Below are positions 9,886 to 33,188 of a stretch of 64,000 bases of DNA, in pieces. Source of the DNA: Gemmatales bacterium (GTDB lineage Bacteria; Planctomycetota; Planctomycetia; Gemmatales; HRBIN36). A program made the translations under genes and the position numbers. Positions within the stretch are counted from its first letter, which is position 1, and the number at the start of each line of letters is the position of its first letter. Where the stretch lies: the NCBI GenBank assembly GCA_041640595.1, contig JBEPZY010000005.1, positions 64,001-128,000 on the forward strand, read 5' to 3'. A model generated the notes under the pieces. That model was not told where the DNA came from and did no database searches. It worked only from the letters and a program-made list of their open reading frames with translations.

Positions 9886-10189
9886 GAAGGGCAGAAGCGT
9901 TGCCTCGGCCGCCTCCGTTGCATGAAGGCCAACCATTCTGACCGGAGTTCCAGGCACTTTCGGGTCTTGAATCTGTACCAGGTCTATCGCAAGCCGCGAC
10001 GGTTGCACTGGTACAACTCGCCTGGAGAATTTTTGCTGTCACATTTTCCCGCTCATTCCGCGTTTATTACTAGGAAGGCCAGTCAGGCCTCGAAGGTAAA
10101 CAAAGGAGATACTCATGTCCAGAACTGCTTTAGAAGGTATCACGAAGAGGGCCAGGAATTCGACTGCCACTAACAATAAGGAGCTTAAC

Positions 10190-11416
10190 ATGCAAAACAA
10201 CGCTTTCGAGAAACGATGTGAAGACCTCAGCCGTGAAATCCGTAGTTTAGAGCAAAAGTCGCAGGAGCTTCAACAAATTTTGCAATGGTATCGGAGCACC
10301 AGTGAGCCGCAACTCATCATTGATTTACACACCAGCCAGCGGCAAGCGGAAGATGTGCGAACGCTTCTCTGGCAATGCGAACGCGAAATTGCCGAACTCA
10401 GCAAACAATTGCGTGATGTCGAATCGCAGCTCGGCAGCTGGCTCAATCCGTTCAACTGGTTTTGTCCGAAGCAACAACTGCTCCGTGAAAACTGTGCCAA
10501 CTTGCGAAGCGCTCTGTCGAAGAAGCAAAAGCAGTATGGCCAGGCGAAAACGCAATTGAACGCACTCGAAGCCAAAATCGAGCAATTGAAGAACCAGTTG
10601 CAACAATATCGGACCTTCGATCTCGCCCATCACGAAAGCCAGTTGGCGGAAGTGCAACAGCAGATTGCCCTCAAGAAAGAAGAACTTGGCCGACTCAGGG
10701 AGCTGAAACGACAGTTGGATCAAAAGTTGCGGCCACTCTACGACGAGGTGGAGGCCCTCGAAGAGGAAAAACGGCAATTGAAATCCCGAATTCAGGTGGC
10801 CGAGGATTTTCAACGCCGACTTGACGAGGCCCCGAATGGCCGCGCCCGTTATGTGCTCCATCAGGAGTGCAAAGACCAATTAGGTGATGAGAAGCCTTTG
10901 TTCATTATCCGGGAAAGCCGTTGTCGTCTGCGAGCCATCGAACGTGACCTCGAGAAGCTATACCAGCGGATTCACCAGGAAATTTCGGCCTTTCTCCGAA
11001 ACTCTGCAATCGAGGAAATCATCATTGACGGCAGCAACCTCTGTTACGAGGACGGTTGTTTCATCGGCCTGGCAGCGTTGAAGGTGCTGGTGCCGGAACT
11101 GGTGAATAAGAATTACCGTGTAGTCGTGGTTTTCGACGCCTCGATTCGGTATAAGCTCAAGACCGGAGACGAAAAGATAACCAGGGCCCTGAGTCCCGCC
11201 AAAGTGCATATCGTCAATACAAGGCAAGCAGCCGACACCTACGTCTTGGATTTGGCTTCTCGGGACGAACATGCCTATGTGCTCAGCAATGACCGATTTG
11301 CCGAGTATCCGGACAGCTCCGTGGTACAGGCCGGACGTATTCTCCGGCACGAAATTGTCAACGGCCAAATCTACATCCCCGACCTGCAAATACGGCTGAC
11401 CTACGGTTCCGCGTAG
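10190..11416 (+). CDS. Coiled-coil protein with C-terminal NYN/PIN (Zc3h12a-like) ribonuclease domain
   Basis: Long heptad-rich N-terminus; acidic active-site motifs IIIDGSN, VVVFDAS, ADTYVL, VLSNDRF; AAGGAG RBS before ATG 10190 (alternative start 10115). Confidence 0.85.
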   Translation: MQNNAFEKRCEDLSREIRSLEQKSQELQQILQWYRSTSEPQLIIDLHTSQRQAEDVRTLLWQCEREIAELSKQLRDVESQLGSWLNPFNWFCPKQQLLRENCANLRSALSKKQKQYGQAKTQLNALEAKIEQLKNQLQQYRTFDLAHHESQLAEVQQQIALKKEELGRLRELKRQLDQKLRPLYDEVEALEEEKRQLKSRIQVAEDFQRRLDEAPNGRARYVLHQECKDQLGDEKPLFIIRESRCRLRAIERDLEKLYQRIHQEISAFLRNSAIEEIIIDGSNLCYEDGCFIGLAALKVLVPELVNKNYRVVVVFDASIRYKLKTGDEKITRALSPAKVHIVNTRQAADTYVLDLASRDEHAYVLSNDRFAEYPDSSVVQAGRILRHEIVNGQIYIPDLQIRLTYGSA

Positions 11417-12865: not shown

Positions 12866-12881
12866 AGTCTCACGGGTGCCC

Positions 12882-13090
12882 GTTCCAGTGATGTTCATCC
12901 GCGATGTGTTGCGGCAGCAATCGTTCGAGTGATGTTCATCCGCGATTCGAGGCGCCCAGTGGCCGTTCCAGTGATGTTCGTCCGCGATGTGTTGCGGCAG
13001 CAATCGTTCCAGGGATGTTCATCCGCGATTCGAGGCACCCAGTGGCCGTGCCAGTGATGTTCATCCGCGATGTGTTGCGGCAGTAATCGT
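12882..13090. repeat. Nested tandem repeat: 24-bp core with alternating 17/18-bp linkers (41/42-bp and 83-bp periods)
   Basis: GTTCCAGTGATGTTCATCCGCGAT-like core at 12882, 12923, 12965, 13006, 13048. Confidence 0.85.
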
Positions 13091-15028: not shown

Positions 15029-16558
15029 ATGGCTCAGCTGACTCGACGGTCGCTGGCCCTGGGCAGCTTCGGCGTGCTTACCGTAGCGGGGATGGCAATG
15101 GCGTTGTTCGCGCTGACACCAAAACCGCCGGACTCCGACCGGGACAACCAGACCCAGGGCGAACCGCATGCAGTTTTCAAACGCCCGTTTCCGAAAAGTC
15201 CGCCTCCACGAGCCGACCTGAACAAGCTGGTGGAGAAAGCTCTGGTTCGCGGTGCCCAATATCTGATTCAGCAACAGCGTAAGGATGGCTCGTGGCGTTC
15301 AGATCGTTATGAGCCATTCCAGGACGGCACGGCCCTGACTCCGCTGGCGGTTTACGCCCTGGAATGCGTTTACGACTCCGACCCCCTTGATAACCACCTG
15401 CGAAATGCAACTATCCGGGCGAGTGTGCATCGCGGACTGGATTTCCTCGCCAGGTACCACCGCCCGGACGGTTCGCTCAACCTGAAGGAAGACGAGTTGC
15501 CCTATCCGGTTTACACGGCGAGCCTGACGATCCTGGCTCTCGCATGGAACCCAGCACATCCTCTGTTTAGTGATCACTGGGGACGAAAGGCCCCCGAACT
15601 TCGGAAAGCCTGGGTGCAATATTTGAAAGAGCGGCAACTGACCGCCCGGCTGGGCTGGCATCCGGAAGATGCGTTCTACGGCGGATGGGGCTATTGTCGG
15701 CTCATTCCCCGAGCGCCCAAGTCCGGCGAGTTTGCACCGCCTCTGCTGGAATCGAATTTGTCTGCCACCGTGTTCGCTCTCGAAGCCTTGCAAGCCGCCG
15801 GCGAGCTGGATGATGAAACCCGACTGGCAGCGCGACACTTTGTGCTTCGCTGTCAGAACTGGTCGCAACCACTCGGCCCCGGCGACGACGGCGGATTTTT
15901 CTTCATTCCCAACGGCGATCCAGTTCGCAACAAAGCCGGCCGATTGGTGGATTTCCTGCGTGCAGCCGACCGGCCAGCGAAAGGCGACGTACCTGCCGAG
16001 AAAATGCTTTCCTACGGCAGTGCCACTGCGGACGGCCTGCTGGCCATGCTTACCTATACCCGCCCGACCCGCGACATCCGGGATAAGGCCCGAATTTCCG
16101 TGGCTGAGCAACTGGAAAAAAAGGACCGCGAGCGCATCCAGGCGGCGATTCGCTGGCTCCAGAAAAACGGGAGCGTGTCTTACAATCCACCGGGACCTGG
16201 TCTCAACGATGCGGTCAATCGCTGCCGGACTCGTCTCGACGGCGCATACTTCTACTACCTGGCCCGACTGGCTCGACTTTATCCGGACAATCTGGGTCTC
16301 CAATTGGCCGACGGCAACCCCGTGCCTGACCCGAACGGCGGTCCGGCGCCCTGGAAATTCTCGGAGGCGTTAGCCTGGCAGTTGTGTCAATTGCAACGCC
16401 CCGATGGTTCCTGGGCAAATCCCCACGATTTTATGCGGGAGGACGAGCCGATCGTCGCCACCTCTTTTGCTTTACTCGCCCTGTGCCGATTCGACCGCCG
16501 CTCCGCCGGCGACATCTTCCGAAAAATCGGCGACAAAATCGCCCCCATCGCTCCGTAG
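15029..16558 (+). CDS. Prenyltransferase/squalene-oxidase-repeat membrane-anchored protein
   Basis: QQRKDGSW, GGWGY, DDGGFFF, QRPDGSW motifs; N-terminal RR plus hydrophobic helix. Confidence 0.85.
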   Translation: MAQLTRRSLALGSFGVLTVAGMAMALFALTPKPPDSDRDNQTQGEPHAVFKRPFPKSPPPRADLNKLVEKALVRGAQYLIQQQRKDGSWRSDRYEPFQDGTALTPLAVYALECVYDSDPLDNHLRNATIRASVHRGLDFLARYHRPDGSLNLKEDELPYPVYTASLTILALAWNPAHPLFSDHWGRKAPELRKAWVQYLKERQLTARLGWHPEDAFYGGWGYCRLIPRAPKSGEFAPPLLESNLSATVFALEALQAAGELDDETRLAARHFVLRCQNWSQPLGPGDDGGFFFIPNGDPVRNKAGRLVDFLRAADRPAKGDVPAEKMLSYGSATADGLLAMLTYTRPTRDIRDKARISVAEQLEKKDRERIQAAIRWLQKNGSVSYNPPGPGLNDAVNRCRTRLDGAYFYYLARLARLYPDNLGLQLADGNPVPDPNGGPAPWKFSEALAWQLCQLQRPDGSWANPHDFMREDEPIVATSFALLALCRFDRRSAGDIFRKIGDKIAPIAP

Positions 16559-16850
16559 TGCCAGCCATAGGCCGATCGTGTAGTCCGAAATATCGCCTTA
16601 GTTGCGTGCAAGGAACCACCGCAATCGATCCGGCGGATCGCGGCAGGCCATCTGGCGTATCGCTAATCCGCTTTCCTCACATCCGTAGTTACCTGGTGAA
16701 AGGGGTGCCGTGCTTGGCGTCGGTTTCAGCTCTGGGCCACTCCAAGCCTGAAAAATCATCATAATGACCACGAGAGGTCGCCACAGTTCGTCAGCGGACG
16801 CGGCAATCCGACCCGTCCCATCGCCAACCCGCTCCCCTCGCCGCACTAGC

Positions 16851-17063
16851 TCATCTGATGTCAGGGGGTGCCGTGCTTGGCGTCGGTTTCGTGTCTTGGC
16901 CAGGCCCGACGTTTGTATTACCAACACCTTGCTTTTTCACAGTTCCGCCATCACCAACCTTAGGAGGAGGAGGCTTCGTCGGCTCTTCCCGGCCGCATCC
17001 GGCAGTCATTAGAGCAATCGCCCACGTGAGCACAACCGCCAGCACTACTCGCAATGGTCTCAT
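16851..17063 (-). CDS. Small Pro-rich lipoprotein
   Basis: Lipobox MTAGC after a hydrophobic signal; start overlaps the upstream stop (ATGA). Confidence 0.7.
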   Translation of the reverse strand: MRPLRVVLAVVLTWAIALMTAGCGREEPTKPPPPKVGDGGTVKKQGVGNTNVGPGQDTKPTPSTAPPDIR

Positions 17064-17776
17064 TGTCCTTCTCCTTGTTTTGCTGGTTCCTGAGGTTTAT
17101 CCGCCGCAAAACGCTTCGCACACTGTTCTAGGAACTCGCACAGTTTTAGCCAGTCTTCCGTGGCCTTTTGCACCAGGCAGTCCTTTATGGTCGTCTCGCC
17201 GTCTTTAGTACTATATTTGAACGCCATTACGAGTATGTTAGCTTCCGCCTTATTTACCTGAGCACGGTTAACCGCCTCTCGAAGATTTCGAGTTAGGTCC
17301 TGGATGGTGCTTTGCGCTTGTTGGTAACTTTTTCGCAAGAGGGCGTCGTCCTGGGGTTTGTTAGGCTTGGTCACCAGATTAGGTTGGGGAGCGGGCCTTG
17401 TGGCTTCTAGCGACAGTCCTAGCGCCGATACGACCAGGGCCAAAATAGCGAGTCCCAAACAAGTTAGCCATACCCAGCCGAGTCTGGGCCACTTATAAAC
17501 GGTTACGTGAAAACTATAAATTCTCCCCGCCTCGTTAGTCTTTTCTTGCTCAAACCGTCTGCGTATGTCCAGCAACACTCCATCAGCTCGGGCGAGACAA
17601 CGCCCGTCCTGCTGGTAATCTTGCTCGGCGAGCTGACTCAACCAGGTGAGCACTTTATTTCTGTACGGATCAGTTCGGCCCTGGAAGCTGGACTGAGAAA
17701 CCTGGTAGCCACCGGCATTCCAGGTTACCAGATAAGATGCTATCGGCCTGAGCGCGGAGCATGAGTTGCGCGCCAT
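17060..17776 (-). CDS. Single-TM protein; N-terminal domain resembling GAP1-N2, C-terminal coiled coil
   Basis: YLVTWNAGGYQVSQSS and EAGRIYSFH recall GAP1-N2 motifs (weak); TM LGWVWLTCLGLAILALVVSALGL; 13 bp downstream of the GTPase gene. Confidence 0.6.
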   Translation of the reverse strand: MARNSCSALRPIASYLVTWNAGGYQVSQSSFQGRTDPYRNKVLTWLSQLAEQDYQQDGRCLARADGVLLDIRRRFEQEKTNEAGRIYSFHVTVYKWPRLGWVWLTCLGLAILALVVSALGLSLEATRPAPQPNLVTKPNKPQDDALLRKSYQQAQSTIQDLTRNLREAVNRAQVNKAEANILVMAFKYSTKDGETTIKDCLVQKATEDWLKLCEFLEQCAKRFAADKPQEPAKQGEGQ

Positions 17777-17789
17777 GGCGACACCCCTG

Positions 17790-19655
17790 TTACTTCGCCG
17801 GTCGTTTCAAAATATCGGGAATTACCCCAGCGAATTTTGTTTCTTTCACTAGGAGGGTCAATTTGTAGTACTCTGACTTCAGGATAATCGCTTGGCCCTC
17901 ACAGCCTAGAAAAGGTGCTCCTATGTGGTATAACGAACTCGGCGGCAACTTATTGTTCGACTGGCTTAAATCCCATGTTACGTTCGTGTACTCCCATTTC
18001 TCGTTCACGAAATTGTAAACGTAGATCGAGACCGTTATCTCTTGCTCCCATTGGAAGGTCTCCGTCACTGGCCCCTTTTTGGGCGGTCGCTGATACTTGC
18101 CTTTTTTGTCCGGCTCTAGCCACCAAGGATTCTGATCCCACTTGCCGAAGACGAGGCCATGACCGAAACGTCTAGTGTTTTCGTCGGGACCTGAATACTC
18201 CAGTGTCGGCTCGAAAACGACCTGATAGGGCTCTTTTGGCGATTCTAAGAACGTTATGGCCTGGTTTAATTCGCTTGCGGGCCTTTCTTTGCCTGGCACG
18301 TGATAGCGCTCGAGTTTGTCCCTTTCCTCTCTTAGGAGCTTAATCGCATCCTTGCGGCTGTCGACTTTTTTCGGGTCACTCAAATCGGCAACGATAGTGT
18401 CGCGTAATTTGTCCCAGAAGTGCCGCTGCGCTTGCCGTAATTCCTCCACACTGGCAGAAGGTCTCGCTTGAGCAAGTATGCGGTTCAGGCCCTCTAACTT
18501 GCGGTTCCGGCCCTCTAAATCATGTAAATTTATCGTCCTAAGATCATTTTGCAAGCGCCTCCCAATTTCGTTGAGCTGCTGGCGTAATTGCTCTGCCCGC
18601 TTGTTGGGCCTCACGGCCAGCACGCAACCGTTCCGCAGAAGCTCACCGAGACGTGTTTGCTCCTTTTGCTCTCTCGGAAACTCGCGCCCTTCCGCCCAGG
18701 GTTGCAGCTCGTTTAGCACTCTTTCGATGTCCGGATCCGGGGGTATTAGGATTGAAATAAGGAGCCAGAACAAAGAGATAATCAAAGCAACCGCGAGAAG
18801 CACTTCCAACGGTTTGAGACGCAACTTACGAGCGAAGTCGTCCAGCTCGAAGAGGGTGCGCACCGTTGCCGTCAGTTGCCGGCCCTGTTCCGACGGAATG
18901 TGTTGCCGGCAGGGAGGATTGGCCACTTCTCGGACCGTCCTTCTCGGGTCAACGAGTCTGTCCGGTGCCTGGGGCCACTTGTCTTTTATCAAATCCGCAA
19001 TTTTTTCCCGAAACAGACGTGATAGGTCTCTTTGTTCCGGGTTGGTTTGCCAAAGGTCTTTGGCGGTGATGACGAAGATGACAGGTCGCATGCCTGGGCC
19101 GTTGCGCAGCGCTGGGCCCCGCCCTTCCAGCAAAGCCTCCAGCAAGCTTTCGGCACGCTCCAACTCCAATGTCAAATGGTCTTCATTAGAGTAGCGGTCC
19201 TGCTTCTGGGTCGGGTTGAAGAAAAACAAAAACGCGTCACATTGGCGTACCATGCTGGCCAGTTGACCCGATGAAGGATAACCCTCGCTTGCTTCCTTGT
19301 CCAGCTCCTCGCCAAACAGATCGTGAACCTCGATGCGGTACTGCCTTGTTTCTTTAGGACTATAGGAAAATTTCCAGACGAAACTGATTCCTTCCCAGGA
19401 TTCGGAAGTGCGCCCGGGGCGACCGTGCTGTTCGATCTCTTTGCCAACCACGTCGAGAAACCGCCGGCACTTTTCGTTGGGTTCGGCCAGCTGGTTTTGC
19501 TCATCCAAGTAGCGCAGGAAGTTGTAAAGGAACAACGTTTTGCCGGCGTGCGTGTAACCGTAAATGCCGATGTTGAGCGAGCGCGTCCGGCGAGAGGCTC
19601 GCTCCAGCCAGTTGGCGAGCGACCGAAGTACCTTGCTGGGGTATGCCGAGCTCAT
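17790..19655 (-). CDS. Membrane-anchored TRAFAC-class GTPase (double-GTPase/GAP1-associated-like)
   Basis: G1 GYTHAGKT, G2 PGRT, G3 DLFGE, G4 variant ITAKD, one TM (VLLAVALIISLFWLLISILI), large C-terminal domain; GGAGGT RBS. Confidence 0.85.
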   Translation of the reverse strand: MSSAYPSKVLRSLANWLERASRRTRSLNIGIYGYTHAGKTLFLYNFLRYLDEQNQLAEPNEKCRRFLDVVGKEIEQHGRPGRTSESWEGISFVWKFSYSPKETRQYRIEVHDLFGEELDKEASEGYPSSGQLASMVRQCDAFLFFFNPTQKQDRYSNEDHLTLELERAESLLEALLEGRGPALRNGPGMRPVIFVITAKDLWQTNPEQRDLSRLFREKIADLIKDKWPQAPDRLVDPRRTVREVANPPCRQHIPSEQGRQLTATVRTLFELDDFARKLRLKPLEVLLAVALIISLFWLLISILIPPDPDIERVLNELQPWAEGREFPREQKEQTRLGELLRNGCVLAVRPNKRAEQLRQQLNEIGRRLQNDLRTINLHDLEGRNRKLEGLNRILAQARPSASVEELRQAQRHFWDKLRDTIVADLSDPKKVDSRKDAIKLLREERDKLERYHVPGKERPASELNQAITFLESPKEPYQVVFEPTLEYSGPDENTRRFGHGLVFGKWDQNPWWLEPDKKGKYQRPPKKGPVTETFQWEQEITVSIYVYNFVNEKWEYTNVTWDLSQSNNKLPPSSLYHIGAPFLGCEGQAIILKSEYYKLTLLVKETKFAGVIPDILKRPAK

Positions 19656-19685
19656 TGCAAACACCTCCGGAATGGTACACCGCTT

Positions 19686-20612
19686 TTAGTTCGGATTCTG
19701 TGCTTGCGGTTTGCCTTGTTCTGGTGGGCCCTCCTCAATAACGACCCACCCTCCGAAGACTTGACGGATGAGGTTCCGGACAGTGCTGAGCGCAGCCTCA
19801 CCTGGGTCGGGCAGCGTGTCCAACTTTACCCGGTTTTTCATTACATCATCCGGAGACAGATCACCTTTGATCGCGCTGAGCTGCTCTTTTAGTTTGCTCT
19901 CCCATTCTTGCGTATCTCGGCCCTCCACTTTTAGTGTTTTCGTTTGGTCACGGTTGCTCTTGGAGCGCCAATCCAGATGTACCGTCAAGTGTTTGGCTTG
20001 GTTACGGGGTTTTGGGCCTGCTTGGGGGCCGGAATCGGGAGAAGCCTGACCCTGTGCTTTAGGTTTTGCGTGGTCAGTCTTTGAGAGCTCCAGCTCCCAG
20101 CGAATCCGCAGGAAGACGTTTTCTGGCAGTTTTTGGGGGATTGTTGGGAATGTAGGGCCCGGGATGAGAGGGGTTGGCGGTTTTGGGGCCTCATCATTCT
20201 TTGAACGGCCTAGAAGATAATACGTAATGAACCCAGCGACGATCCCAGCGACCAGAGCGAGCGTTACGGCTGCCCAGGCAGGGACTATGATCATCCCCAC
20301 GACCAATACGGCGGTTCCCACTATGACGCCGACCATCGTTGCAATCAACAGGCGTTGAGCCTCGGCAATTGATTCCAGAAGATTGGATTTGCCAAGCCAG
20401 GCTCCGATGTTCCAGTTCGCGCTGACGATGCCCTGGATCGATGGCGATGCACGAGGCGGTTCCAGTTGCTGTAGTCCGGCAAAATCACTTAATCCGGTTA
20501 CGGATGAAGCAGGTGCCAGGCTATTTGCCGGGGTGCTGGAATATGCCACGGCGCCTGCGATAAGTCCAGTCAAAAGTGCCGCAGTGCACAGGGGCCAAGT
20601 AGGCCGTCGCAT
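19686..20612 (-). CDS. Membrane protein (signal helix, TM hairpin, Pro linker, C-terminal soluble domain)
   Basis: Hydrophobic N-terminus, two adjacent TM helices, AAGGAG RBS, operonic position. Confidence 0.75.
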   Translation of the reverse strand: MRRPTWPLCTAALLTGLIAGAVAYSSTPANSLAPASSVTGLSDFAGLQQLEPPRASPSIQGIVSANWNIGAWLGKSNLLESIAEAQRLLIATMVGVIVGTAVLVVGMIIVPAWAAVTLALVAGIVAGFITYYLLGRSKNDEAPKPPTPLIPGPTFPTIPQKLPENVFLRIRWELELSKTDHAKPKAQGQASPDSGPQAGPKPRNQAKHLTVHLDWRSKSNRDQTKTLKVEGRDTQEWESKLKEQLSAIKGDLSPDDVMKNRVKLDTLPDPGEAALSTVRNLIRQVFGGWVVIEEGPPEQGKPQAQNPN

Positions 20613-20648
20613 GATGTGTCTCCTTTGTGCCGCGCCGGTCTGGTTTCA

Positions 20649-21083
20649 CTATTCGAAAGCGAAGCGGACGCGGCGGACGAAGTAAACAGGTCGCTCCCAT
20701 TCTTTCTCTAATTTGCCCCTTCTTTCTTCCGGCCAGGCGCGATCGAAGCCGCGATCACTGAGCAAAATCATGACTCGCACTTCTTGCGGGTTAGTGCTGA
20801 TGTTCTGGGCCAGATGGTCAACCTCACCTTTGCTCTTGAGTTCTTTATTGCTTCGCCTCCAGCTTCCTCGGGCATCTTTTTCGAGAAGAAAGATACGGCC
20901 CTCCAGGTCGCCATAGGTGCCGCCGTAAAGGAGCAGAAACTGTGTGGGAGTCCCTTCCAAACTTACTGGGCGACGGCCAACGCGATACTGAGCCGTCACC
21001 AGTATGACCATCAACACTGCCAGCAGGCAGAGCGTAACATCCAGCAGCGACAAAAAGCGCACAATGACGCCAGTTGCTCGCAT
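20649..21083 (-). CDS. ExbD/TolR-like protein
   Basis: N-terminal TM with conserved-type Asp (SLLDVTLCLLAVLMVIL); directly follows the ExbB-like gene. Confidence 0.75.
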   Translation of the reverse strand: MRATGVIVRFLSLLDVTLCLLAVLMVILVTAQYRVGRRPVSLEGTPTQFLLLYGGTYGDLEGRIFLLEKDARGSWRRSNKELKSKGEVDHLAQNISTNPQEVRVMILLSDRGFDRAWPEERRGKLEKEWERPVYFVRRVRFAFE

Positions 21084-21093
21084 ATTCGCGTGC

Positions 21094-21501
21094 CTATCTC
21101 TTAGTTTGGAACCACTGCAGCAGGTAAAGCGCTGCGTTCAGGAAGATATTGACGACCGCCCAGATCAGTCCGGAAATAGTGGTGGTCAAAGCCGGGGCCA
21201 GATTCATGACCATCTGGCCCACATCGGGGACATCTGCCCCTTCCAGGCCATAAGAGGTCAGTCCGTAAAAAGTATTGAGCAGCGCAATGACAGTGCCCAA
21301 AAGACCCAGCAGCGGCAATACTTCGGTGAAACTGAGCAGCGTGGCACGGAAAGTGTCGAAGTTCTCAATAGGGTGGAGCCTCCACCAGTATCGGTACAGG
21401 TACCAGACTAAACTTCCAAAATGGAGCAGGAAAAGGATACCTCCAAAAACCCAGATAACCGTATCGAGTGGCCCAAATGCTTGCCAGTAGTATTCGAGCA
21501 T
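21094..21501 (-). CDS. Minimal MotA/TolQ/ExbB proton-channel protein
   Basis: PLLGLLGTV and ALTTTISGL signature helices; three TMs; GGAGGT RBS favours start 21501 (135 aa). Confidence 0.85.
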   Translation of the reverse strand: MLEYYWQAFGPLDTVIWVFGGILFLLHFGSLVWYLYRYWWRLHPIENFDTFRATLLSFTEVLPLLGLLGTVIALLNTFYGLTSYGLEGADVPDVGQMVMNLAPALTTTISGLIWAVVNIFLNAALYLLQWFQTKR

Positions 21502-21819
21502 AGACATACCTCCACACCTACCGGCCAACGCTTTGGTCTTATGATAGTGCGCCCAGACCAGAGTGGGCAAGAAAAAAATTGGAAAGTGCTGCGACTTTTT
21601 CCTCTCAGCTGGGCAGGATGAGCTGCACAGGACCCCGGGCTTGAAAACCAGACCGCGACACGCTGGAACTAAACGTTCACCGCTTGCCCATGCGCTTCCG
21701 TTACGAGGCACCGGTCGGACGTCAGCGGAAAGGAACGACTGACCGCCGGCGGGTGCATACTGCCCACCGGCCAGTGGGAACCGCCCACCTCGTCGCTGAA
21801 AATCGCCTACTCGCCCCGA

Positions 21820-21882
21820 TACCAGCTACTGGCCGCTGATTACCGGCCGCTGGTCACTGGCCACTGGTCACTGGCCACTGAT
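21820..21882. repeat. Heptamer tandem repeat (CCACTGG/TCACTGG)
   Basis: Direct reading of 7-bp periodic units. Confidence 0.8.
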
Positions 21883-21891
21883 TTGGTTCGG

Positions 21892-22819: not shown

Positions 22820-23280
22820 GGACCAGTGGTCAGTGATCGGTGACCAGTGGCCAGTGGCTGGTGGCTGCTCATCGGCGACAAGTCATTAGTGCGCATTGTC
22901 CGCTGACCGGTGCTCAGTGACCCGTGATCGATGACAGATGGTCACTGACAGCCCGCCACTCATCACCAAGCACCAGTCGCCAGCCCCTGGCCACTAATTA
23001 CTGACCACTGGTCACCGGCGGCTAATCACTGGCCACTGTTCACGGGTCACTAAATTACTGGCCACTGGTCACTTACCACCGGCCACTGGGCACGGGCCAC
23101 TAATTGCTGGCCACTGGTCACTTACCACTGGCCACTTGCTCTTGATGTCGGATCACTTGTTTCCAGTCACCGATCGCTGGCCACTGGTCACCTACCACTG
23201 ACCACTGATTACTGGCCGCTGCTCACTGGCCACTGGCCACTGATCGCCGGCCACTGGTCACTGACCACCGGCCACTGATT
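22820..23280. repeat. Heptamer tandem repeat tract with two opposed orientations
   Basis: CCAGTGG/TCAGTGA units (22820-22940) followed by CCACTGG/TCACTGA units (22990-23280). Confidence 0.85.
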
Positions 23281-23998: not shown

Positions 23999-24530
23999 TG
24001 GTCAGTGGCCGGTGGTCAGAAAACAGGGATTAGGAATCCGCGACTAAGCGTTAGCAATTAGCAATTGGGGTTTACCGATGACGCATTAGCAAATACGGAT
24101 TCGGAATCAAGTAATCGGATAAGAGGAATTAGCGATAGGCGCTCGGCACTTGGATATCCATAAGCCTGGGTTGACTGTTTAATGGCGACTAATCACCCGC
24201 GACGAGTCGCTATTAACCACTAAACACCACCCATTAATATCCGGCAACTAATCACTGACCACTGAACACTGACCACTAATTACCGGGCACGAGTTACTAA
24301 CCACTAAACACTGGCGACTGACTCCGGCTACCAATCACTAAGCACTGATCACTAAGCATTAGCTTCTGGCGACTAATCAAAGGCCTAGAATTGCTAAGCA
24401 CTAATCATCGCTCACTGAGCACTGGCAACCAGTCGCCGGCTTCTAATCACTAACCACTTGTCACTAACCACTAATCACTGGCCACTAATTACTGGCCACT
24501 AAGCGCCGGCCGCCGAGCACTGACCAATAC
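23996..24530. repeat. AT-richer degenerate heptamer tract (CCACTAA/TCACTAA/TTAGCAA)
   Basis: 7-bp periodicity, no ORF, between convergent genes. Confidence 0.75.
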
Positions 24531-24544
24531 GGCCGCCGCAGGAG

Positions 24545-24883
24545 TTAGTTGCTATCCGAACCAGTGGGCTGCACCAGTTCCCGAATGCGCACGGCAAAGC
24601 GATCCTGCACCACGACGACTTCGCCGCGGGCTACCAGCACACCGTTGATCCGTAAATCCACCGGCTGGCTAATGTCGCGGTCGAGTTCGAGCACCGAGCC
24701 TGGGCCGAGCCGTAAGACCTCGCGTAACGGCAACTGGGCTCGCCCCAGTTCAGCCGTGATGGTAACGGTGACTTTGTGCAGGTGATCCAGCGGTGCCGGC
24801 GATTCTGATGTGGTTTTGGGAGTCAGTTCCGTAAATTCAGCGGTATGGGCGATGATTTCGCTCATTTCGGCGGAAGTGGACAT
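24545..24883 (-). CDS. fliN: Flagellar motor switch protein FliN
   Basis: SpoA domain VTITAELGR...GSVLELD...ARGEVVVVQDRFAVRI. Confidence 0.92.
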   Translation of the reverse strand: MSTSAEMSEIIAHTAEFTELTPKTTSESPAPLDHLHKVTVTITAELGRAQLPLREVLRLGPGSVLELDRDISQPVDLRINGVLVARGEVVVVQDRFAVRIRELVQPTGSDSN

Positions 24884-24949
24884 GGTCTTGCTCCAGACTG
24901 GCGGCAGGTATTGGCCAGAAAGCAGCCGTAAGCTCTGCCGACTACTCGG

Positions 24950-25810
24950 TCACTGGCCAGTGGGCACCGGGTCAAGGGTAGCCGCGATTTGCACGGCCTG
25001 TTTGCTGCCCACCCGACCTGGCCAGGCGGTGTAGCGGGCACTTCCCTCCACGAGGACCAGTAATGGTTCCTCGAGCCGCTGTTCCAGGAGCAGCACATCG
25101 CCTGCTCGCAGTCGTTGCAGATGCGCCAGCGGCAAGCGAACCTGACCGAGCTGCACCTGCACTTTCAAAGGCACTTGCTGAAGGGCCTCTTCGATACGTC
25201 CCGGCGATTTCGGAGCCGTTGTTTCCAGTGCAAAAAATTGCTGCATCACCGCTTCGCTCAGCAACCACCAGACCAACCCGTCTGCGAAAGGTGGTTCGCC
25301 TCGCAGTTCGGCAACAGCCAGGGCGAATTGCTGGCGAAAAATTGGGGTAAATTGCGGAGCCGCCTCTCGAGCCTGGCGTTGCCATTGCGGTACTGGTTCC
25401 CGGCCCCAGCTTTCCCGCGCCAGGGCAAGAAAAACCTGGTCGAGGAACTGCTCCCACAGACTCGTTTCAATCACGGTCAACGGTCGGTCAGCGGGCAGAC
25501 TTTCACATCGTTCGCCCAGTTGCGCCAGTGTCCAGGCCAGCACCAGCGGACGGGAAACCACCAGCAGCGATGACGCCGAGTTCGACCAGGCGATGATGTA
25601 GGCCAGGACGTTTTCGGGCAGCTGGCTCAGGGCAGATTCGGTATAAGCGCGGCGAAGCGACTCCAGCCGTAAACTGAGCGGCAGGTGCAATTCACGCCGG
25701 CAATAGTCGTTGCATTGGGTCAGAAACACCGTCAGCCAAGCCCGCAATTGTCGAGAAACTTCGGGCGGATATGGTTGCGGCTGGCGAAAATCGTAAGGCG
25801 TGGCATTCAT
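24950..25810 (-). CDS. fliM: Flagellar motor switch protein FliM
   Basis: PYDFRQP N-terminal motif, RPLTVIE, C-terminal SpoA domain; between fliL and fliN. Confidence 0.85.
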   Translation of the reverse strand: MNATPYDFRQPQPYPPEVSRQLRAWLTVFLTQCNDYCRRELHLPLSLRLESLRRAYTESALSQLPENVLAYIIAWSNSASSLLVVSRPLVLAWTLAQLGERCESLPADRPLTVIETSLWEQFLDQVFLALARESWGREPVPQWQRQAREAAPQFTPIFRQQFALAVAELRGEPPFADGLVWWLLSEAVMQQFFALETTAPKSPGRIEEALQQVPLKVQVQLGQVRLPLAHLQRLRAGDVLLLEQRLEEPLLVLVEGSARYTAWPGRVGSKQAVQIAATLDPVPTGQ

Positions 25811-26316
25811 TGCACGGTAAACTCTTCAAAATGCACCTGGCGGATCACCTCCCGGCCATCTGGATAAAGCATCTCGTTGAAATGATCGCGAATTTCCCGG
25901 CGGATGCGATTGATCCCGACGGTGCCTCGCACCTCCTCGAGTGTACGGTCAGCCAGGTAACTGATCAGCCAGCTTTTGAGCGGTGCCTTGCGCTTGTTGA
26001 GCAATTCGTTGAGCTTCTTTTCTTCGCTCTCTTCGACTTCCAGCACAATTTTGAGCCGCAGATAGCGGGTGAGCCGTTCTTCGTGCAAATTGACCACGAC
26101 ATCCCCGAAAGTGACGAACGCCGTCTTTTCTTCTTTTTTACTGCTGTGGCTCCTGGGGGAAGTATCCGCGTGACCTGCCGAGCCAGCGCCGGAAATGAAC
26201 CAGGGAACAGCAAAGCCGGCGGCAATGGACACCAGGGCAATTCCGCCCAGCGCTATCCAGCCGAGCAGCCCACTCTTTTTCGGTGTCTCGGTGGTTTGCT
26301 GTGCCGTTTCTGCCAT
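25807..26316 (-). CDS. fliL: Flagellar basal body-associated protein FliL
   Basis: Single TM, VVNL...RYLRLKI, C-terminal VHFEEFTVQ. Confidence 0.9.
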   Translation of the reverse strand: MAETAQQTTETPKKSGLLGWIALGGIALVSIAAGFAVPWFISGAGSAGHADTSPRSHSSKKEEKTAFVTFGDVVVNLHEERLTRYLRLKIVLEVEESEEKKLNELLNKRKAPLKSWLISYLADRTLEEVRGTVGINRIRREIRDHFNEMLYPDGREVIRQVHFEEFTVQ

Positions 26317-26455
26317 GCGATTCGCATCCCGAAGAAGAAAAGCCCAGGTGGTAGGCGGCTAAAGTGGCCTTCGGCACAGTGCCGGCACCGGCTTGATTCA
26401 GATTGAGCCGGCACACCGCGGACAGCTTGCTAAGAGCCGGTCTATCCAGCAAAGT

Positions 26456-27241
26456 CTAGCTTTTTGTGGCTGGCCGTGGGGGTGTCCGCTTCAGGTTTTT
26501 GACGCGCTCAATAATCTGGGTGGCCAGGTCGGGAGGCATTTGTTCGAGGATTTTGGCGGCCTTGCTTTCGCGGACCAGGCTGAAGAGCTTGACGGCGGTG
26601 TCGAGATTGCCCGTGTTGGCCATGTGCTCGAACAGTTTGGCGGCGCTTTCCGGAGCCATATTGCTGACCCGCTCGGCCAGGGTTTCCAGATTTTTGCGTT
26701 CGTTGTCTTCAAAAAGCCGCAGTGAACCTTCGAAGTCTTTGACCCGTTCGGCCACTTCTTCTTTCTGGCGAAGTAACTCCTGGCGCTTTTCGTCCAGTTT
26801 GCCGAGCTGTTCTTCGAGCAGGCGCATTTCGTCGGCGATTTGCTTGCGGAGCGCGTCGAGAGCAGCCCGCTCGGCGCGGATGTCGTTGTAGAGCAGTTCG
26901 AGGTTTTTCTGGCGGGCGTTGAGGACTTCTTCCTGCCGGCGCAGTTCTTCGCGGCGTTTTTCCAGGGTGGCCAGAAGCTGGACCGCCGCTTCGACCTGCT
27001 GGGATTGTGGTAAACGGACGGCCACGCGGTCGCCGCTGGCGCTGCTTTCTCCGCCGGATTCACTGGTAACTTCGCCACTCTGGGAAACGGCACCACTCTG
27101 CCCCGAACCGGATGCGTTCTCCGCAGATGCCTGCGAACGTTGATTCTTCTGCCACCACCATGACACACCGGCAGAGACTCCAAACAAGACCGCACCAACC
27201 AGCACGTACATGAGGATACGTTTCATGGTCAAAGCTCCCAT
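26456..27241 (-). CDS. MotE/FlbB-like flagellar protein (TM, coiled coil, MgtE-N-like repeats)
   Basis: MAPESAAKLF and KAAKILEQMPP repeats after a long coiled coil. Confidence 0.75.
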   Translation of the reverse strand: MGALTMKRILMYVLVGAVLFGVSAGVSWWWQKNQRSQASAENASGSGQSGAVSQSGEVTSESGGESSASGDRVAVRLPQSQQVEAAVQLLATLEKRREELRRQEEVLNARQKNLELLYNDIRAERAALDALRKQIADEMRLLEEQLGKLDEKRQELLRQKEEVAERVKDFEGSLRLFEDNERKNLETLAERVSNMAPESAAKLFEHMANTGNLDTAVKLFSLVRESKAAKILEQMPPDLATQIIERVKNLKRTPPRPATKS

Positions 27242-27292
27242 GCGAGACTCATTAATGCCCGGATATTAGCGGTCGGGAATGTATGGCCGTGG

Positions 27293-27883
27293 TCATCGGG
27301 CGGATTCTTCGCTGGTCGGAATTTGACCGCCGGCGGCCAGTGGTGAATCCACCGGCCGACGCGAGGCATTCACCGTCTCAGGCAATTCCAGTGAGCCGAC
27401 GGTCAGGTGCACGCTCCTGGCTTCTGCCTGGCGCGACCACGCGCGCAGCACCAGTTCATCCATCTCGTGTTGCTCGAAAATACGCTGCTCGCGGCGAAAT
27501 GCTTGCCAGGCTTGCTCACGAAGCCAGTTCAATGCCTCGACCTTTCGCGTGATCTCCAGCCGCCGCTGATCGCTCTGCTGCCAGGCCTGGCGGTGAAGCT
27601 CCTCCTGCTGGCGTGCCAGTTTGAGGATTTGATCCAGGACGACCAGGTGCTCGGCCAGCAGGAACCAGTACTGTTCCGCAGCGATGGCGTCGGCAGATGG
27701 TGCGGAGGTCAGGCGCGAACTGGCCGAATGGCTGATTTCCTGGGCGTGCGCTTGCAGAGCCTGCAATTGCTCGCGCATCGCTGACCAACGCCGGTAGGCT
27801 TGTGCCTGTTCCTGTTCGGCCAGACGCTGACGCAGCCGCTGAAGACGCAGCAAGGTTTCCAGACGAAAGCGAAAGCGTTTCAT
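27293..27883 (-). CDS. fliJ: Flagellar export protein FliJ
   Basis: MKRFRFRLETLLRL start, EQHEMDE motif, follows fliI. Confidence 0.85.
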   Translation of the reverse strand: MKRFRFRLETLLRLQRLRQRLAEQEQAQAYRRWSAMREQLQALQAHAQEISHSASSRLTSAPSADAIAAEQYWFLLAEHLVVLDQILKLARQQEELHRQAWQQSDQRRLEITRKVEALNWLREQAWQAFRREQRIFEQHEMDELVLRAWSRQAEARSVHLTVGSLELPETVNASRRPVDSPLAAGGQIPTSEESAR

Positions 27884-27959
27884 CCCGGCTCCGGTTGTGT
27901 CCGAGCAGTTTTCCAGATGCGGAGGGTTTCTGGTCGCTCAGCGGAGAGCGGCCGTTATT

Positions 27960-28110
27960 ATCAGTGGCCAGTGACCAGTGGTCGGTGATCGGTGGCCAGT
28001 GGTCGGTGTCGGGTGGCCAGTGGTTGGTGACCAGTGACCAGTGGTCGGTGGCCGGTGATCAGCATCCCGTGATCGGTGGTGAGTAATCAGGGGCCGGTCG
28101 TCGGTCAGCG
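27960..28110. repeat. Heptamer tandem repeat (CCAGTGG/TCGGTGA) between fliI and fliJ
   Basis: Direct reading. Confidence 0.8.
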
Positions 28111-28291
28111 GCACGGCAAATCGGTTGGGCGGCAGGTCAAGCTGAGCACCGGATGGCGACCGTTGCTGGAGCTCCAGGAAGCGCTGGCGAAGCGACCGGT
28201 GCACATTGGCTCAAGCGAGACATCAAGCGCTGCCCCACCGGCTCGGGGAAGCGGTGCACCTCCCTTGGCGAAGCGACCGGCGCAGAGGCGT

Positions 28292-29650
28292 TCAAGCGGT
28301 GACCGTTGCGGTTTGGCCAGGATTTGCACTCCAGGCAGCCGCGAGCCTTTGTAAAGCGGTTCGAGTTTCGGTGAAACTGGAGCGTTCGCCGAGGTTTTGC
28401 CGCAAAAATTGCCACAAAGCCGGTTGCAATTCCAGAGCCCGATCCACCTGGGGATTGCTCCCCCGCACGTAAGCACCGATGCGCACCAGGTCTTCCACCT
28501 CAGCGAGCGTGGCGATCATCGCCCGCACTTGCTGAGCGGCTTGCGCGTGACTGGGTTCCATGACTTCACGAGCAACACGGCTAATGCTGCGGCTGATGTC
28601 AATGGCGGGATAATGCCCTTTTTCGGCCAGCCGGCGATCGAGCACAATGTGCCCGTCGAGAATCGCCCGGCAGGCATCGGCAATCGGTTCCTCCATTTCG
28701 TCGCCTTCGACGAGGACGGTCAACAGAGCGGTGATACTTCCCCGCTCGGCTGGGCCCAATCGTTCCAGCGTCGCTGCCAGTAGCTGAAACACCGATGGTG
28801 TGTAACCGCGACTGCTGGGTGGTTCGCCGAGGGCCAGTCCCAGTTCGCGCTGCGCCATGGCCAGGCGAGTCAGACTGTCCAGCAGAAGCAGCACCTGCTG
28901 ACCCTGCTGGCGAAACTCCTCGGCCACACTGACAGCTGCGAGAGCGGCATGGACTCGCATCAGCGGAGTCTGATCACTGGTAGCCACGAAAACCACACTG
29001 CGTTGCAATCCGGCAGCCAGATTGTCTTCGAGGAAGGCCCGCACCTCGCGGCCACGCTCACCGATGAGCGCCACGACCACCACATCGGCTTCTGCACCAC
29101 GGGCAATTTCGCCCAGCAGCGTGCTTTTGCCCACACCGCTACCAGCAAAAATGCCCACGCGCTGCCCCTGACCGAGCGTGAGCAGTCCATCAATAGCCCG
29201 CTGGCCCGTAACAAACGGACGGCGAATGCGAGAGCGCGCCAGTGGTGATGGAGCGGTACCGTTTCCTACGGGGATTAACTTGCCAGCGGGGGGTGGTTGG
29301 CCATCGAGCGGACGGCCCAGTCCGTCCAGCACCCGCCCTAATAAAGCTGGCCCAAAAGCAATCCGCAAACTGCCGCCGCCATGCCTCACCTCTGTTCCGG
29401 GAGCCAGGGCGGTCACGGCTTCAAAAGGTGCCAGGATGGCCGTCGTCTCCCGAAAACCAATCACCTGGGCCGGAACCAGGCGATGTTCGTCGGCGACAAT
29501 CACGCAGTAATCGCCGACCGCTGCCGGTAGCCGACAGGTAAGCACGCTCCCCTGGACGCTTTGTAAGCGTCCCACCAGGGTCGGCGTCCAGGCTTGCCGT
29601 AACGCCTGCCGCCATTCAGCCAGTCGTGCCGGGTTCCACCGCATCGGCAT
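28292..29650 (-). CDS. fliI: Flagellar export ATPase FliI
   Basis: GQRVGIFAGSGVGKSTLL Walker A, LIGERGREV, DSLTR, ILDGHIVL. Confidence 0.95.
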   Translation of the reverse strand: MPMRWNPARLAEWRQALRQAWTPTLVGRLQSVQGSVLTCRLPAAVGDYCVIVADEHRLVPAQVIGFRETTAILAPFEAVTALAPGTEVRHGGGSLRIAFGPALLGRVLDGLGRPLDGQPPPAGKLIPVGNGTAPSPLARSRIRRPFVTGQRAIDGLLTLGQGQRVGIFAGSGVGKSTLLGEIARGAEADVVVVALIGERGREVRAFLEDNLAAGLQRSVVFVATSDQTPLMRVHAALAAVSVAEEFRQQGQQVLLLLDSLTRLAMAQRELGLALGEPPSSRGYTPSVFQLLAATLERLGPAERGSITALLTVLVEGDEMEEPIADACRAILDGHIVLDRRLAEKGHYPAIDISRSISRVAREVMEPSHAQAAQQVRAMIATLAEVEDLVRIGAYVRGSNPQVDRALELQPALWQFLRQNLGERSSFTETRTALQRLAAAWSANPGQTATVTA

Positions 29651-30248
29651 CTATGCGCTGTTGTAAAGCCTGCCGCAGTGCAGCCAGGCGTTCCTGCCAT
29701 TGCCACCAGACGGCCAGCTCTTGCCATTGGGCTCGATATTCACCGCGTCGCAATCGGCTATCGGGGACGAGATGCCAGCCGGCCACCATCTGCCGCAATG
29801 CTTCGGGTGCCTGTTTCTGCCACCATTCGTGATCTGCCGGATGCAATGCCAGCGTGATTCCTTCCTTTTGACTCAGTAAAGCGGTGAGTTCCTGGATTCG
29901 GCGTTGCCAGACCTCGACGGGGATGGGCACCGCCGGGCCCAGGGTCTCCTCCCACACCAGGCAGGCCAGTTCCAGTGCCAGTCGCGGCAAGGCCTGACGC
30001 AACTCCTGCAGTTGCTCCTGCCATTGCTGCCAGGTCTTCTGCAGGGCCGATTGCCAGCGGACGATCTGATCGAGCCTGTCGTCTGATGGTGCGTTCGATG
30101 GTGCTGCCGGTGCTGGTGTGGGAGTCGGTTCGGGCAGCGGTGTTGCCTCCGATTTTTCCGAAGCTAATTCCACCCGCAGCAGACGACGAGGCAAGCGGAG
30201 GAGATATTCACGCGCCATGCTTTCCATCCGGTGTCCTGCGGCGGTCAC
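29616..30248 (-). CDS. fliH: Flagellar assembly protein FliH (divergent)
   Basis: Position between fliG and fliI; LHPAD and LVPDSRLRRGE motifs; start may be the internal MESM/MARE. Confidence 0.7.
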   Translation of the reverse strand: MTAAGHRMESMAREYLLRLPRRLLRVELASEKSEATPLPEPTPTPAPAAPSNAPSDDRLDQIVRWQSALQKTWQQWQEQLQELRQALPRLALELACLVWEETLGPAVPIPVEVWQRRIQELTALLSQKEGITLALHPADHEWWQKQAPEALRQMVAGWHLVPDSRLRRGEYRAQWQELAVWWQWQERLAALRQALQQRIDADAVEPGTTG

Positions 30249-31237: not shown

Positions 31238-31551
31238 AAAGCGTTCCTGTTCGCGCGATCAGTTCCCCGCAAGCAGTGACCAGTGGCCGGTGGTCAGTGA
31301 TCGGTGACCAGTAATGGGTGCCGGTTGGTATAGTGGGTCGCTGGTTGTTACTGATCGGAGCTCGGTGATTAGCGGGCGGACGGTGTTGTTGAGCGTGAAG
31401 CAATGGACACTGGTCGGCGTCTGTGTTTGTTGGTGCAGCGTGCAAGAAGATTGGCGGCTGAAAGTTTGCGCTGCCAGGATTCTGGTCGGCGTGTGTCTAT
31501 GGTGGCGAATCGTGCAAGGGTCAGGCTCGCTCAAATTTAGCATGAAAGGAA

Positions 31552-33099: not shown

Positions 33100-33188
33100 G
33101 GTGGACCGTTTCTGTGCAGGTACGCCCTGGTTCGCCCGGCGGCTTTCTCCCACCGATCAGGAACCTGCAATCTTACATGGCTGGCGGT

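Follow-up and report, generated by a model that had tools for sequence, protein, structure and literature searches.

Ion-driven 5:2 motors power flagella, the Ton and Tol systems, gliding and type IX secretion (T9SS), and Zorya defence, and in none of these systems is it settled how the motor is turned on and off. Control by a small GTPase is experimentally established in Myxococcus, where MglA-GTP governs the TolQR-like Agl-Glt machinery via the membrane protein GltJ (PMC11135422). Zorya ZorAB is a MotAB/ExbBD-family motor that works outside motility and uptake (PMC11946911), and in bacteria of the Planctomycetes–Verrucomicrobia–Chlamydiae (PVC) group, force transducers of the vWA type are bitopic proteins other than TonB or TolA that stand beside a TolQ-like motor (PMC12204202). 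The GAP1 systems are predicted, membrane-associated TRAFAC GTPase modules with an accessory distribution, which also occur in planctomycetes (Kaur, Burroughs, Iyer, Aravind 2020; PMC7159879). Here we describe an operon of six minus-strand open reading frames (ORFs) at positions 16851–21501 of a 64-kb stretch of DNA from a Gemmatales bacterium (hereafter the window), in which a minimal ExbB/ExbD-type motor pair is encoded together with a membrane-spanning GTPase. The operon does not belong to the Ton, Tol-Pal, flagellar-stator or Zorya systems, nor to the canonical GAP1 systems. We tentatively propose that the six genes may encode a GTP-switched, proton-powered envelope complex, with conflict or defence as its likeliest, though unproven, role. 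An operon that joins a mini ExbB/ExbD motor to a GTPase was not found described in the literature searched, which covered motor and transducer surveys by term look-up and did not extend to subscription literature.

A preliminary description, made from the sequence alone, had reported six packed minus-strand genes with ribosome-binding sites (RBSs), among them a membrane-hairpin protein and a lipoprotein. All six ORFs are present as described, their frames free of internal stops. The intergenic distances along the operon are 10, 36, 30, 13 and −4 nucleotides (nt), and a purine-rich, RBS-like motif lies ahead of five of the six start codons. The features are as follows.

21094..21501, minus strand: minimal MotA/ExbB/TolQ-type channel subunit, 135 amino acids (aa); Pfam MotA_ExbB match and conserved motifs.
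20649..21083, minus strand: putative ExbD/TolR-like axle subunit, 144 aa; position, transmembrane (TM) Asp15 and a modest TolR fold match.
19686..20612, minus strand: polytopic membrane protein, 308 aa; ORF, hydrophobic segments and a shared C-terminal domain.
17790..19655, minus strand: bitopic GTPase of the DO-GTPase kind, 621 aa; motifs, AlphaFold2 (AF2) model and structure matches.
17060..17776, minus strand: bitopic helical protein (fifth gene), 238 aa; hydrophobic span and conserved position.
16851..17063, minus strand: small lipoprotein (sixth gene), 70 aa; signal peptide and Cys.
21827..21883, no strand: tandem repeat array of 14-nt period, 4.1 copies (Tandem Repeats Finder), at the upstream border of the possibly variable segment discussed below.

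The first protein matches Pfam MotA_ExbB (PF01618) at 39.2 bits (cut-off 22.9), which bears out its description as a minimal ExbB/MotA subunit of 135 aa; the orthologue in genome G017 scores 33.6 bits. Weak NCBIfam matches point to small ExbB and TolQ, and a profile of nine ExbB-like orthologues retrieved ExbB/TolQ chains alone from the PDB (E 0.004–0.5, aligned across TM2–TM3), with ‘GLLGT’ and ‘TTISGL’ falling on TM2–TM3 of ExbB 7ajq. The protein has three hydrophobic spans and lacks a cytoplasmic domain. In ExbB/TolQ, conserved polar residues (Thr) of TM2 and TM3 line the ion path. Two stretches, ‘LLPxLGLLGT’ and ‘TTISGL’, are invariant across nine aligned ExbB-like relatives, and we take them to be the channel-lining motifs of ExbB/TolQ. 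The start at 21501, chosen in the preliminary description, is the best supported, with GGAGG 7 nt upstream and the relatives beginning at the aligned ‘MWEAYWQ’.

MotA and ExbB are one family and a flagellar cluster lies 3 kb upstream on the same strand, so that the operon could be read as an auxiliary flagellar stator. This is hardly credible: the 135-aa A subunit lacks a cytoplasmic torque-generating domain, the B subunit matches neither MotB_plug nor an OmpA-like family, and between operon and cluster stand two unrelated genes, one of them on the opposite strand, which encode an inositol monophosphatase and a diphthamide-synthase-like protein. Scans of flanking proteins in related loci turned up no flagellar family. 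The flagellar cluster itself occupies 24545–33153 of the window (minus strand) and comprises fliN, fliM, fliL, a fliJ-like gene, fliI, fliH, fliG and fliF (Pfam).

The ExbD-like gene begins 10 nt downstream of the ExbB-like gene. Its product has a single N-terminal hydrophobic span followed by a predicted periplasmic α/β domain, and the Asp of the TM helix, Asp15, is kept in every one of the 10 aligned relatives. When aligned by hhalign with the four canonical ExbDs of the same genome, the Asp-bearing TM helix alone was matched, Asp on Asp (E 0.067). The AF2 model (pLDDT 81) has the domain order β-β-β-α-β-α-β. Out of 48,161 representative chains, Escherichia coli TolR (5by4_A) came top for this domain (Z 5.1, root mean square deviation 3.4, 78 residues over 46–139), and it was the sole chain at Z ≥ 5. 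Foldseek gave no match to the model at E ≤ 1e-3; its rows for RNase-H-like, YeaZ and NTPDase folds (E 2e-3 and weaker, TM-score 0.22–0.28) were rejected as generic α/β similarity. Because of its position, its TM Asp and the modest TolR fold match we accept the product of gene 2 as a putative ExbD/TolR-type axle subunit, family membership being short of proof.

The GTPase is the largest of the six proteins. Residues G33, G38, K39, D112, G115 and D200 are invariant in 41 aligned family members and T40, T83, E116 and T197 are conserved in at least 90% of them; these residues constitute the Walker A motif, the switch-I Thr, the DxxGE motif and a TxxD guanine-specificity-type motif. In the AF2 model (pLDDT 90) the G domain (∼25–245) is followed by a TM helix (∼282–304), a seven-helix bundle (308–471) and a β-rich domain (477–607). 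Foldseek returned 354 PDB matches at E ≤ 1e-3, topped by EF-Tu, BDLP, LeoA, mitofusin and Rab32, and VIA-align matched residues 19–279 to Rag-like, Arl2, RagD, Rab32, G-alpha and Ras chains with Z 16.7–13.4. The earlier proposal of a TM-anchored TRAFAC GTPase agrees with the motifs kept in 41 sequences, with the Ras/Rag/Arf-like fold (Z 15–16.7) and with the one TM span. Since a G domain has to lie in the cytoplasm and the TM helix is preceded by basic residues, the C-terminal ∼310 residues are expected in the periplasm. Two kinds of PDB sequence match were discarded, namely designed helical proteins and apolipoproteins aligned to the helical half (profile search), which are composition-driven, and YcjX (E 0.8), which matches the P-loop alone.

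In outline the operon shares much with Ton and Tol-Pal. Each has a MotA/ExbB/TolQ-family A subunit with conserved TM2/TM3 motifs, an adjacent B subunit with one TM helix and an essential-type Asp, and as third component a bitopic protein whose periplasmic part is long; a TolR-like periplasmic fold of the B subunit is a further, tentative parallel. However, the A subunit of the operon has only 135 aa, the bitopic partner bears a cytoplasmic GTPase, one or two extra polytopic proteins are present, and the operon is a rare accessory rather than a core locus. The TonB/TolA C-terminal domain, TolB, an OmpA-like Pal and a receptor are missing: in a Pfam scan at E ≤ 1 the six proteins gave no match to the TonB, TolA/B, Pal/OmpA or receptor families. 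The preliminary description had likewise listed TonB, a TonB-dependent receptor, TolB/Pal and an OmpA-like MotB domain as absent, and by domain content the locus is not a known Tol, Ton or gliding operon.

Solved structures and NCBIfam models nevertheless place the ExbB-like subunit closest to ExbB, and the GTPase protein has a TonB-like topology, so a Ton-like energiser for outer-membrane uptake, with the GTPase protein as a substitute for TonB, deserves mention. We consider it very unlikely, given that the operon has neither a TonB C-terminal domain nor a TonB-dependent receptor, that scans of the flanking proteins (related loci and window) turned up no family of either kind and that the genome already holds two canonical ExbB–ExbD–ExbD clusters.

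The pairing of ExbB/ExbD with the GTPase that the preliminary description saw in the window recurs in other genomes. Scans of genomes and metagenome contigs with GTPase alignments gave 20 related loci besides the one in the window, all ORFs of which were scanned with hidden Markov models (HMMs) built from the operon components. Six loci (L012, L021–L023, L029, L030) have too little DNA upstream of the GTPase; in all 14 that have enough (L010, L011, L013, L015–L020, L024–L028) the order ExbB-like, ExbD-like, TM protein gene(s), GTPase is kept. Sixteen loci extend far enough beyond the GTPase to show whether the fifth gene comes next, and 15 of them have it. The exception, L030, encodes a distant 697-aa GTPase relative with 662 nt of upstream DNA and no downstream match to the fifth gene, and neither supports nor breaks the co-occurrence. 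In each of the 14 loci read by eye at this point, the fifth gene is succeeded by a small ORF that has a signal peptide and a lipobox-like Cys. When near-duplicates (L016/17/18 and L010/26/27) are merged, ∼9 distinct lineages remain, and the gene set holds down to ∼23–25% GTPase identity to the window. The loci come from records labelled Isosphaeraceae, Thermoguttaceae, Planctomycetota and Gemmatales, and a close relative of the G017 copy is assigned to Gemmataceae (NCBI). On this comparative sequence evidence, the view that the ExbB/ExbD pair and the GTPase form a conserved unit is supported.

Two subtypes can be told apart, with one TM protein (window, L015, L016–L018) or two (TMA and TMB, all others). 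L016–L018 (e.g. L017, 6176–10727) carry a one-TM-protein copy with ∼52% GTPase identity whose ExbB frame is cut into two parts and whose GTPase frame is cut into three. As the breaks are identical in three separate records, they suggest that this copy is decaying in its lineage rather than being misassembled. In L011 (6573–7980, a metagenome-assembled genome of Isosphaeraceae) the TMA and TMB genes each appear to be split into two ORFs, for which frameshifts or assembly errors are possible.

The remaining partners are membrane proteins without a family assignment. The 308-aa polytopic protein consists of an N-terminal hydrophobic segment, a glycine-rich TM hairpin and a ∼110-aa C-terminal domain, which is common to the TMA and TMB proteins of the related loci (HMM E 3e-5) and contains an invariant P-x-P-G-[ED] motif in this protein and its relatives. 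No noteworthy match to the 308-aa protein was obtained in Pfam, PADLOC, the PDB or the ESM Atlas. By hhalign, the shared domain gave no significant match to canonical ExbDs (E 0.18), and its alignment with the ExbD-like family of the operon (E 0.37), in which equivalent strands occur in the same order, is a lead only. The fifth protein has a ∼95-aa cytoplasmic domain with an invariant G-Y-x-V motif and a hydrophobic span at 102–120; its C-terminal part is expected to be helical, and no family match was found in Pfam, PADLOC or NCBIfam. The lipoprotein gene overlaps the fifth gene by 4 nt and encodes a signal peptide, a Cys after ‘..TAG’ and a low-complexity tail rich in Pro, Lys, Thr and Gly. 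The fifth protein and the lipoprotein each have one hydrophobic span. The system had been called wholly membrane-bound, and this stands in that all six proteins are anchored; the GTPase and the fifth protein do, however, have sizeable cytoplasmic domains.

The inventory of parts (motor pair, helical protein, lipoprotein and a bitopic protein that is long on the periplasmic side) broadly recalls Tol-Pal and Agl-Glt, and the Tol-Pal operon, too, includes genes for a helical protein and a lipoprotein. It is therefore conceivable that the locus encodes an envelope or surface-structure machine (for tethering, remodelling, surface transport or a gliding-like process) in which the GTPase sets where and when the motor complex assembles. 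Agl-Glt of M. xanthus offers the precedent, a TolQR-type motor governed by a Ras-like GTPase via a membrane protein, although MglA is soluble, encoded elsewhere and binds GltJ in trans, whereas the G domain of the operon is fused to a membrane protein (PMC11135422). Glt, AglZ, GYF and zinc-ribbon parts were not found in the operon by domain scans, the only comparison of homology made. We regard such a machine as the main alternative, though a rather unlikely one. The extreme rarity and patchiness of the locus (see below) better fit a dispensable accessory trait, the reading frames of the L016–L018 copy are broken, and the Pfam scan of the operon revealed no adhesin, vWA, OmpA-like, TolB or secretin-type component.

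An envelope machine is also favoured by a further minimal ExbB/ExbD locus elsewhere in this genome, which adjoins a YbgC-like thioesterase gene and is conserved in the genus (G000:C1, ∼674400–679550; L044 8424–13545, minus strand). The pair, a 170-aa MotA_ExbB protein (43 bits) and an ExbD-like protein of 190 aa whose TM helix bears an Asp, is preceded by the 4HBT (YbgC-like) thioesterase; after it come a Trp-rich protein with two TM segments and a bitopic protein of 681 aa that lacks a P-loop. The last is present in 3 of 3 same-genus genomes and 2 of 2 of one sister genus, and has no match in Pfam or the ESM Atlas. Minimal motors therefore also serve vertically inherited functions, and this locus may be the Tol-like system of the lineage. 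By eye its layout parallels that of the operon, and the 681-aa protein was considered as a P-loop-less copy of the GTPase; the hhalign match (E 0.19) falls on an unrelated stretch and the idea was dropped.

The proposal of a GTP-switched complex with a conflict or defence role draws on the affinity of the GTPase. DO-GTPases are TRAFAC GTPases defined by a conserved Glu after DxxG in the Walker B region (Kaur et al., 2020; PMC7159879). This hallmark is present as D112-x-x-G115-E116, with E116 in at least 90% of the 41 sequences. DO-GTPase1 is the best Pfam family for the window GTPase (E 6e-4), at a score below the cut-off of 27 bits, which the G017 orthologue passes with 31.2 bits. Across the family, 24 of the 41 members match DO-GTPase1 (best E 4e-8) and 24 match DO-GTPase2 (best E 3e-9) at E ≤ 0.01 (the PF19975/PF19993 pair), so that the DO-GTPase lead holds for the family. 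The only other DO-GTPase-like ORF of the genome (G000:C9, ∼105090–105680; L051/L053) forms the start of a 1006-aa open frame; its domain scores 34 bits for DO-GTPase2 and 27 bits for DO-GTPase1, and no MotA/ExbB match occurs on contig C9.

With the GAP1 systems the operon thus shares a TRAFAC GTPase with a Glu after DxxG and weak to moderate DO-GTPase matches, as well as membrane association, occurrence in planctomycetes and an accessory distribution. It differs in that GAP1 (N, M, C), the FNIII-repeat protein and zinc ribbons are missing, in that there is a single GTPase, and in that the TM helix lies C-terminal to the G domain and leads into a large periplasmic part. The families GAP1, GASH and FNIII were found neither in the six proteins (Pfam E ≤ 1) nor in the proteins of the G017 locus (E ≤ 0.1). 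The linked motor is a further difference: the available text of PMC7159879 and two of its supplementary files contain no mention of MotA, ExbB, ExbD, TolQ or TolR.

Zorya resembles the operon as an accessory system with a MotAB/ExbBD-family motor, but the long ZorA tail, the peptidoglycan-binding ZorB domain and soluble effectors of the ZorC/D type (PMC11946911) have no counterpart in the operon. The ExbB-like, ExbD-like and GTPase proteins gave no match to PADLOC Zorya or other families at E ≤ 1. The vWA-type transducers are similar in placing a bitopic protein other than TonB/TolA beside a TolQ-like motor in Planctomycetes, and for them, too, coupling between transducer and motor is inferred by the authors from synteny (PMC12204202). 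The head of the operon protein, however, is not a vWA domain, and the conserved docking-helix His reported for those transducers is not seen by eye in the TM helix of the GTPase. By term look-up, GTPase, NTPase and P-loop are not mentioned in the available text of PMC12204202, nor is GTPase in that of PMC12505986, which deals with 5:2 motors.

The locus is rare. In a collection of 5.8 billion proteins the GTPase has five near relatives only, and a profile search of 1.84 billion cluster representatives gave 108 matches at E ≤ 1e-3 and 61 at E ≤ 1e-30. Among 40 related genomes the GTPase occurs in one, with 0/3 in the same genus (n = 3, completeness 78–93%), 0/11 in further members of the family and 1/26 in the neighbouring family. 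None of 400 genomes sampled evenly across the phylum contained it by family profile (E ≤ 1e-10; three first-look candidates per genome scored). With one copy in 40 relatives and none in 400 sampled genomes, the locus is not core across the phylum; the operon is rare and accessory. Two squalene-cyclase-like genes to its left are syntenic in two relatives; to the right of these genes nothing there matches the window, the shared gene order stopping at the gene that borders the operon. The composition points the same way. The preliminary description had judged the operon more A/T-rich than its flanks, and this holds modestly, because GC (0.538 versus a mean of 0.594, sd 0.024) and GC3 (0.588 versus 0.644, sd 0.044) are below those of the 55 other window ORFs of ≥ 100 aa.

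Sequencing runs that contain at least 30% of the words of the stretch are mostly labelled as hot-spring or microbial-mat metagenomes, and contigs from four of them were compared with it. In one DNA run the contig depth is ∼20 over the flanks versus 0–11 over the operon, and in one RNA-library run it is 72 versus ∼10. Deep contigs of the RNA-library run X4 end at 16545 and 22024, and in two runs the contig depth shifts between ∼21816 and 22024, near the 14-nt repeat array. Because contig depths are neither copy numbers nor shares of cells, these observations are only a hint that the segment ∼16545–21830 is strain-variable. Contigs from three RNA libraries fall on the operon, X4 spanning 18005–21734 and X19 and X20 yielding short pieces; the lack of X4 cover at 16988–17555 proves nothing. 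Promoter-like sites (3 versus 2.4 expected from shuffling) and terminator-like sites (8 versus 6.9) near the operon show no excess.

The flanking genes vary between related loci. Clear defence genes accompany two of them: the L010/L029 lineage has, within 5 kb, a CARF protein, a RAMP fusion of type III CRISPR-Cas and an MZB protein of the DruE-like kind, and L011 has close by a bpX4 conflict-system domain as well as a nuclease of the PD-DExK/NucC-like kind. Weaker defence candidates, a deaminase and an integrase, flank L025, and the flanks of L013, L017 and L028 hold housekeeping or unknown genes only, with no defence genes. The operon of the window itself has as neighbours the genes for two squalene-cyclase-like proteins, for an inositol monophosphatase and for a diphthamide-synthase-like protein; the flagellar cluster lies 3 kb upstream. 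A 433-aa protein encoded at 10115–11416 (plus strand) ends in a C-terminal NYN (Zc3h12a-like) RNase domain with a faint LmuB-like PADLOC match. The GC of its gene (0.515) is the lowest in the window; it lies 5.4 kb from the operon and is a possible defence or mobile gene. The candidate conflict system of the preliminary description thus retains weak backing from defence genes near some loci, but finds no PADLOC match.

We propose the following model. The six products would assemble as one inner-membrane and periplasmic complex. At its centre would be the minimal proton motor of the ExbB/ExbD type, which by analogy with solved relatives is presumably a ring and axle of 5:2 stoichiometry. The accessory partner of the motor would be the membrane-spanning GTPase, in the position of TonB or TolA, and the remaining partners would be the polytopic proteins (one or two, with a periplasmic domain in common), the bitopic helical protein and the small lipoprotein. 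The nucleotide state of the G domain may, via the TM helix, switch the engagement of the periplasmic arm and membrane partners by the motor, or the reverse; on grounds of synteny we suppose that the GTPase either gates the motor or receives signals from it. The N-terminal domain of the fifth protein is a candidate regulator, since it and the G domain are the only sizeable cytoplasmic domains. A complex prediction of GTPase 1–280 with residues 1–96 of the fifth protein scored 0.00 and, being without controls, says nothing either way. The likeliest, though unproven, job of the complex is envelope surveillance or defence, for instance by triggering membrane perturbation, rather than housekeeping, and the output might be perturbation of the membrane by the motor or by the glycine-rich hairpin proteins. 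A defence role is favoured because of the rarity of the operon, its patchy spread over three planctomycete orders, its lower GC and its DO-GTPase affinity. A bolder version, which we think doubtful, makes the GTPase a nucleotide-gated force transducer on ExbB5–ExbD2: GTP binding or hydrolysis in the cytoplasm would gate the transmission of proton-driven rotation to the periplasmic head, in reverse a breach of the envelope felt by the head would set the state of the GTPase, and the outcome could be an abortive-infection-type switch through which the membrane potential is collapsed by the motor or by the glycine-rich hairpin proteins.

Several findings weigh against a GTP-switched motor complex with a role in conflict. 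For the putative axle subunit, neither Pfam nor NCBIfam gave a match at E ≤ 1 and the profile search of PDB sequences none at E ≤ 10; its assignment is made up of position, Asp and a Z of 5.1, and sequence profiles give the periplasmic domain no link to ExbD. The window GTPase scores 19.6 bits, below the DO-GTPase1 cut-off of 27, and has no GAP1 or FNIII partner; no fold is assigned to its periplasmic half, matches to the G domain having taken up the structure-search lists. Nor did hhalign, the PDB profile search or the ESM Atlas yield a fold for the C-terminal domain that the TM proteins share. As to defence, the six proteins match no PADLOC model at E ≤ 1e-2, the operon has no recognisable effector enzyme, and clear defence genes lie near 2 of ∼7 independent contexts, with weaker candidates in 2 more, which is not clearly above chance. 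RNA-library contigs cannot show transcription and may stem from DNA carry-over. Contact among the six proteins is something we infer, as are the 5:2 assembly, the physical coupling, the direction of signalling and the defence role.

A nucleotide-gated transducer, if true, would be the first 5:2 motor under in-cis GTPase control. A putative transducer with its own GTPase makes the link between a nucleotide switch and a proton motor testable with six small genes, and would supply the predicted DO-GTPase ‘conflict’ family with a tangible output at the membrane. Should the role be defence, the operon would represent a second motor-based immune strategy besides Zorya. The general reach of such findings is limited, since the system is rare and occurs in uncultured hot-spring planctomycetes.

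Several of the intergenic regions near the operon and its neighbours are filled by arrays of 7/14-nt units (about CACTGGCCACTGAT), at 21827–21883, 22821–22863, 22987–23280 and 24243–24502. A different tandem repeat, with a period of 83, 2.6 copies and 93% matches, lies at 12876–13090 of the window; it is built of 41-nt units and is apparently non-coding.

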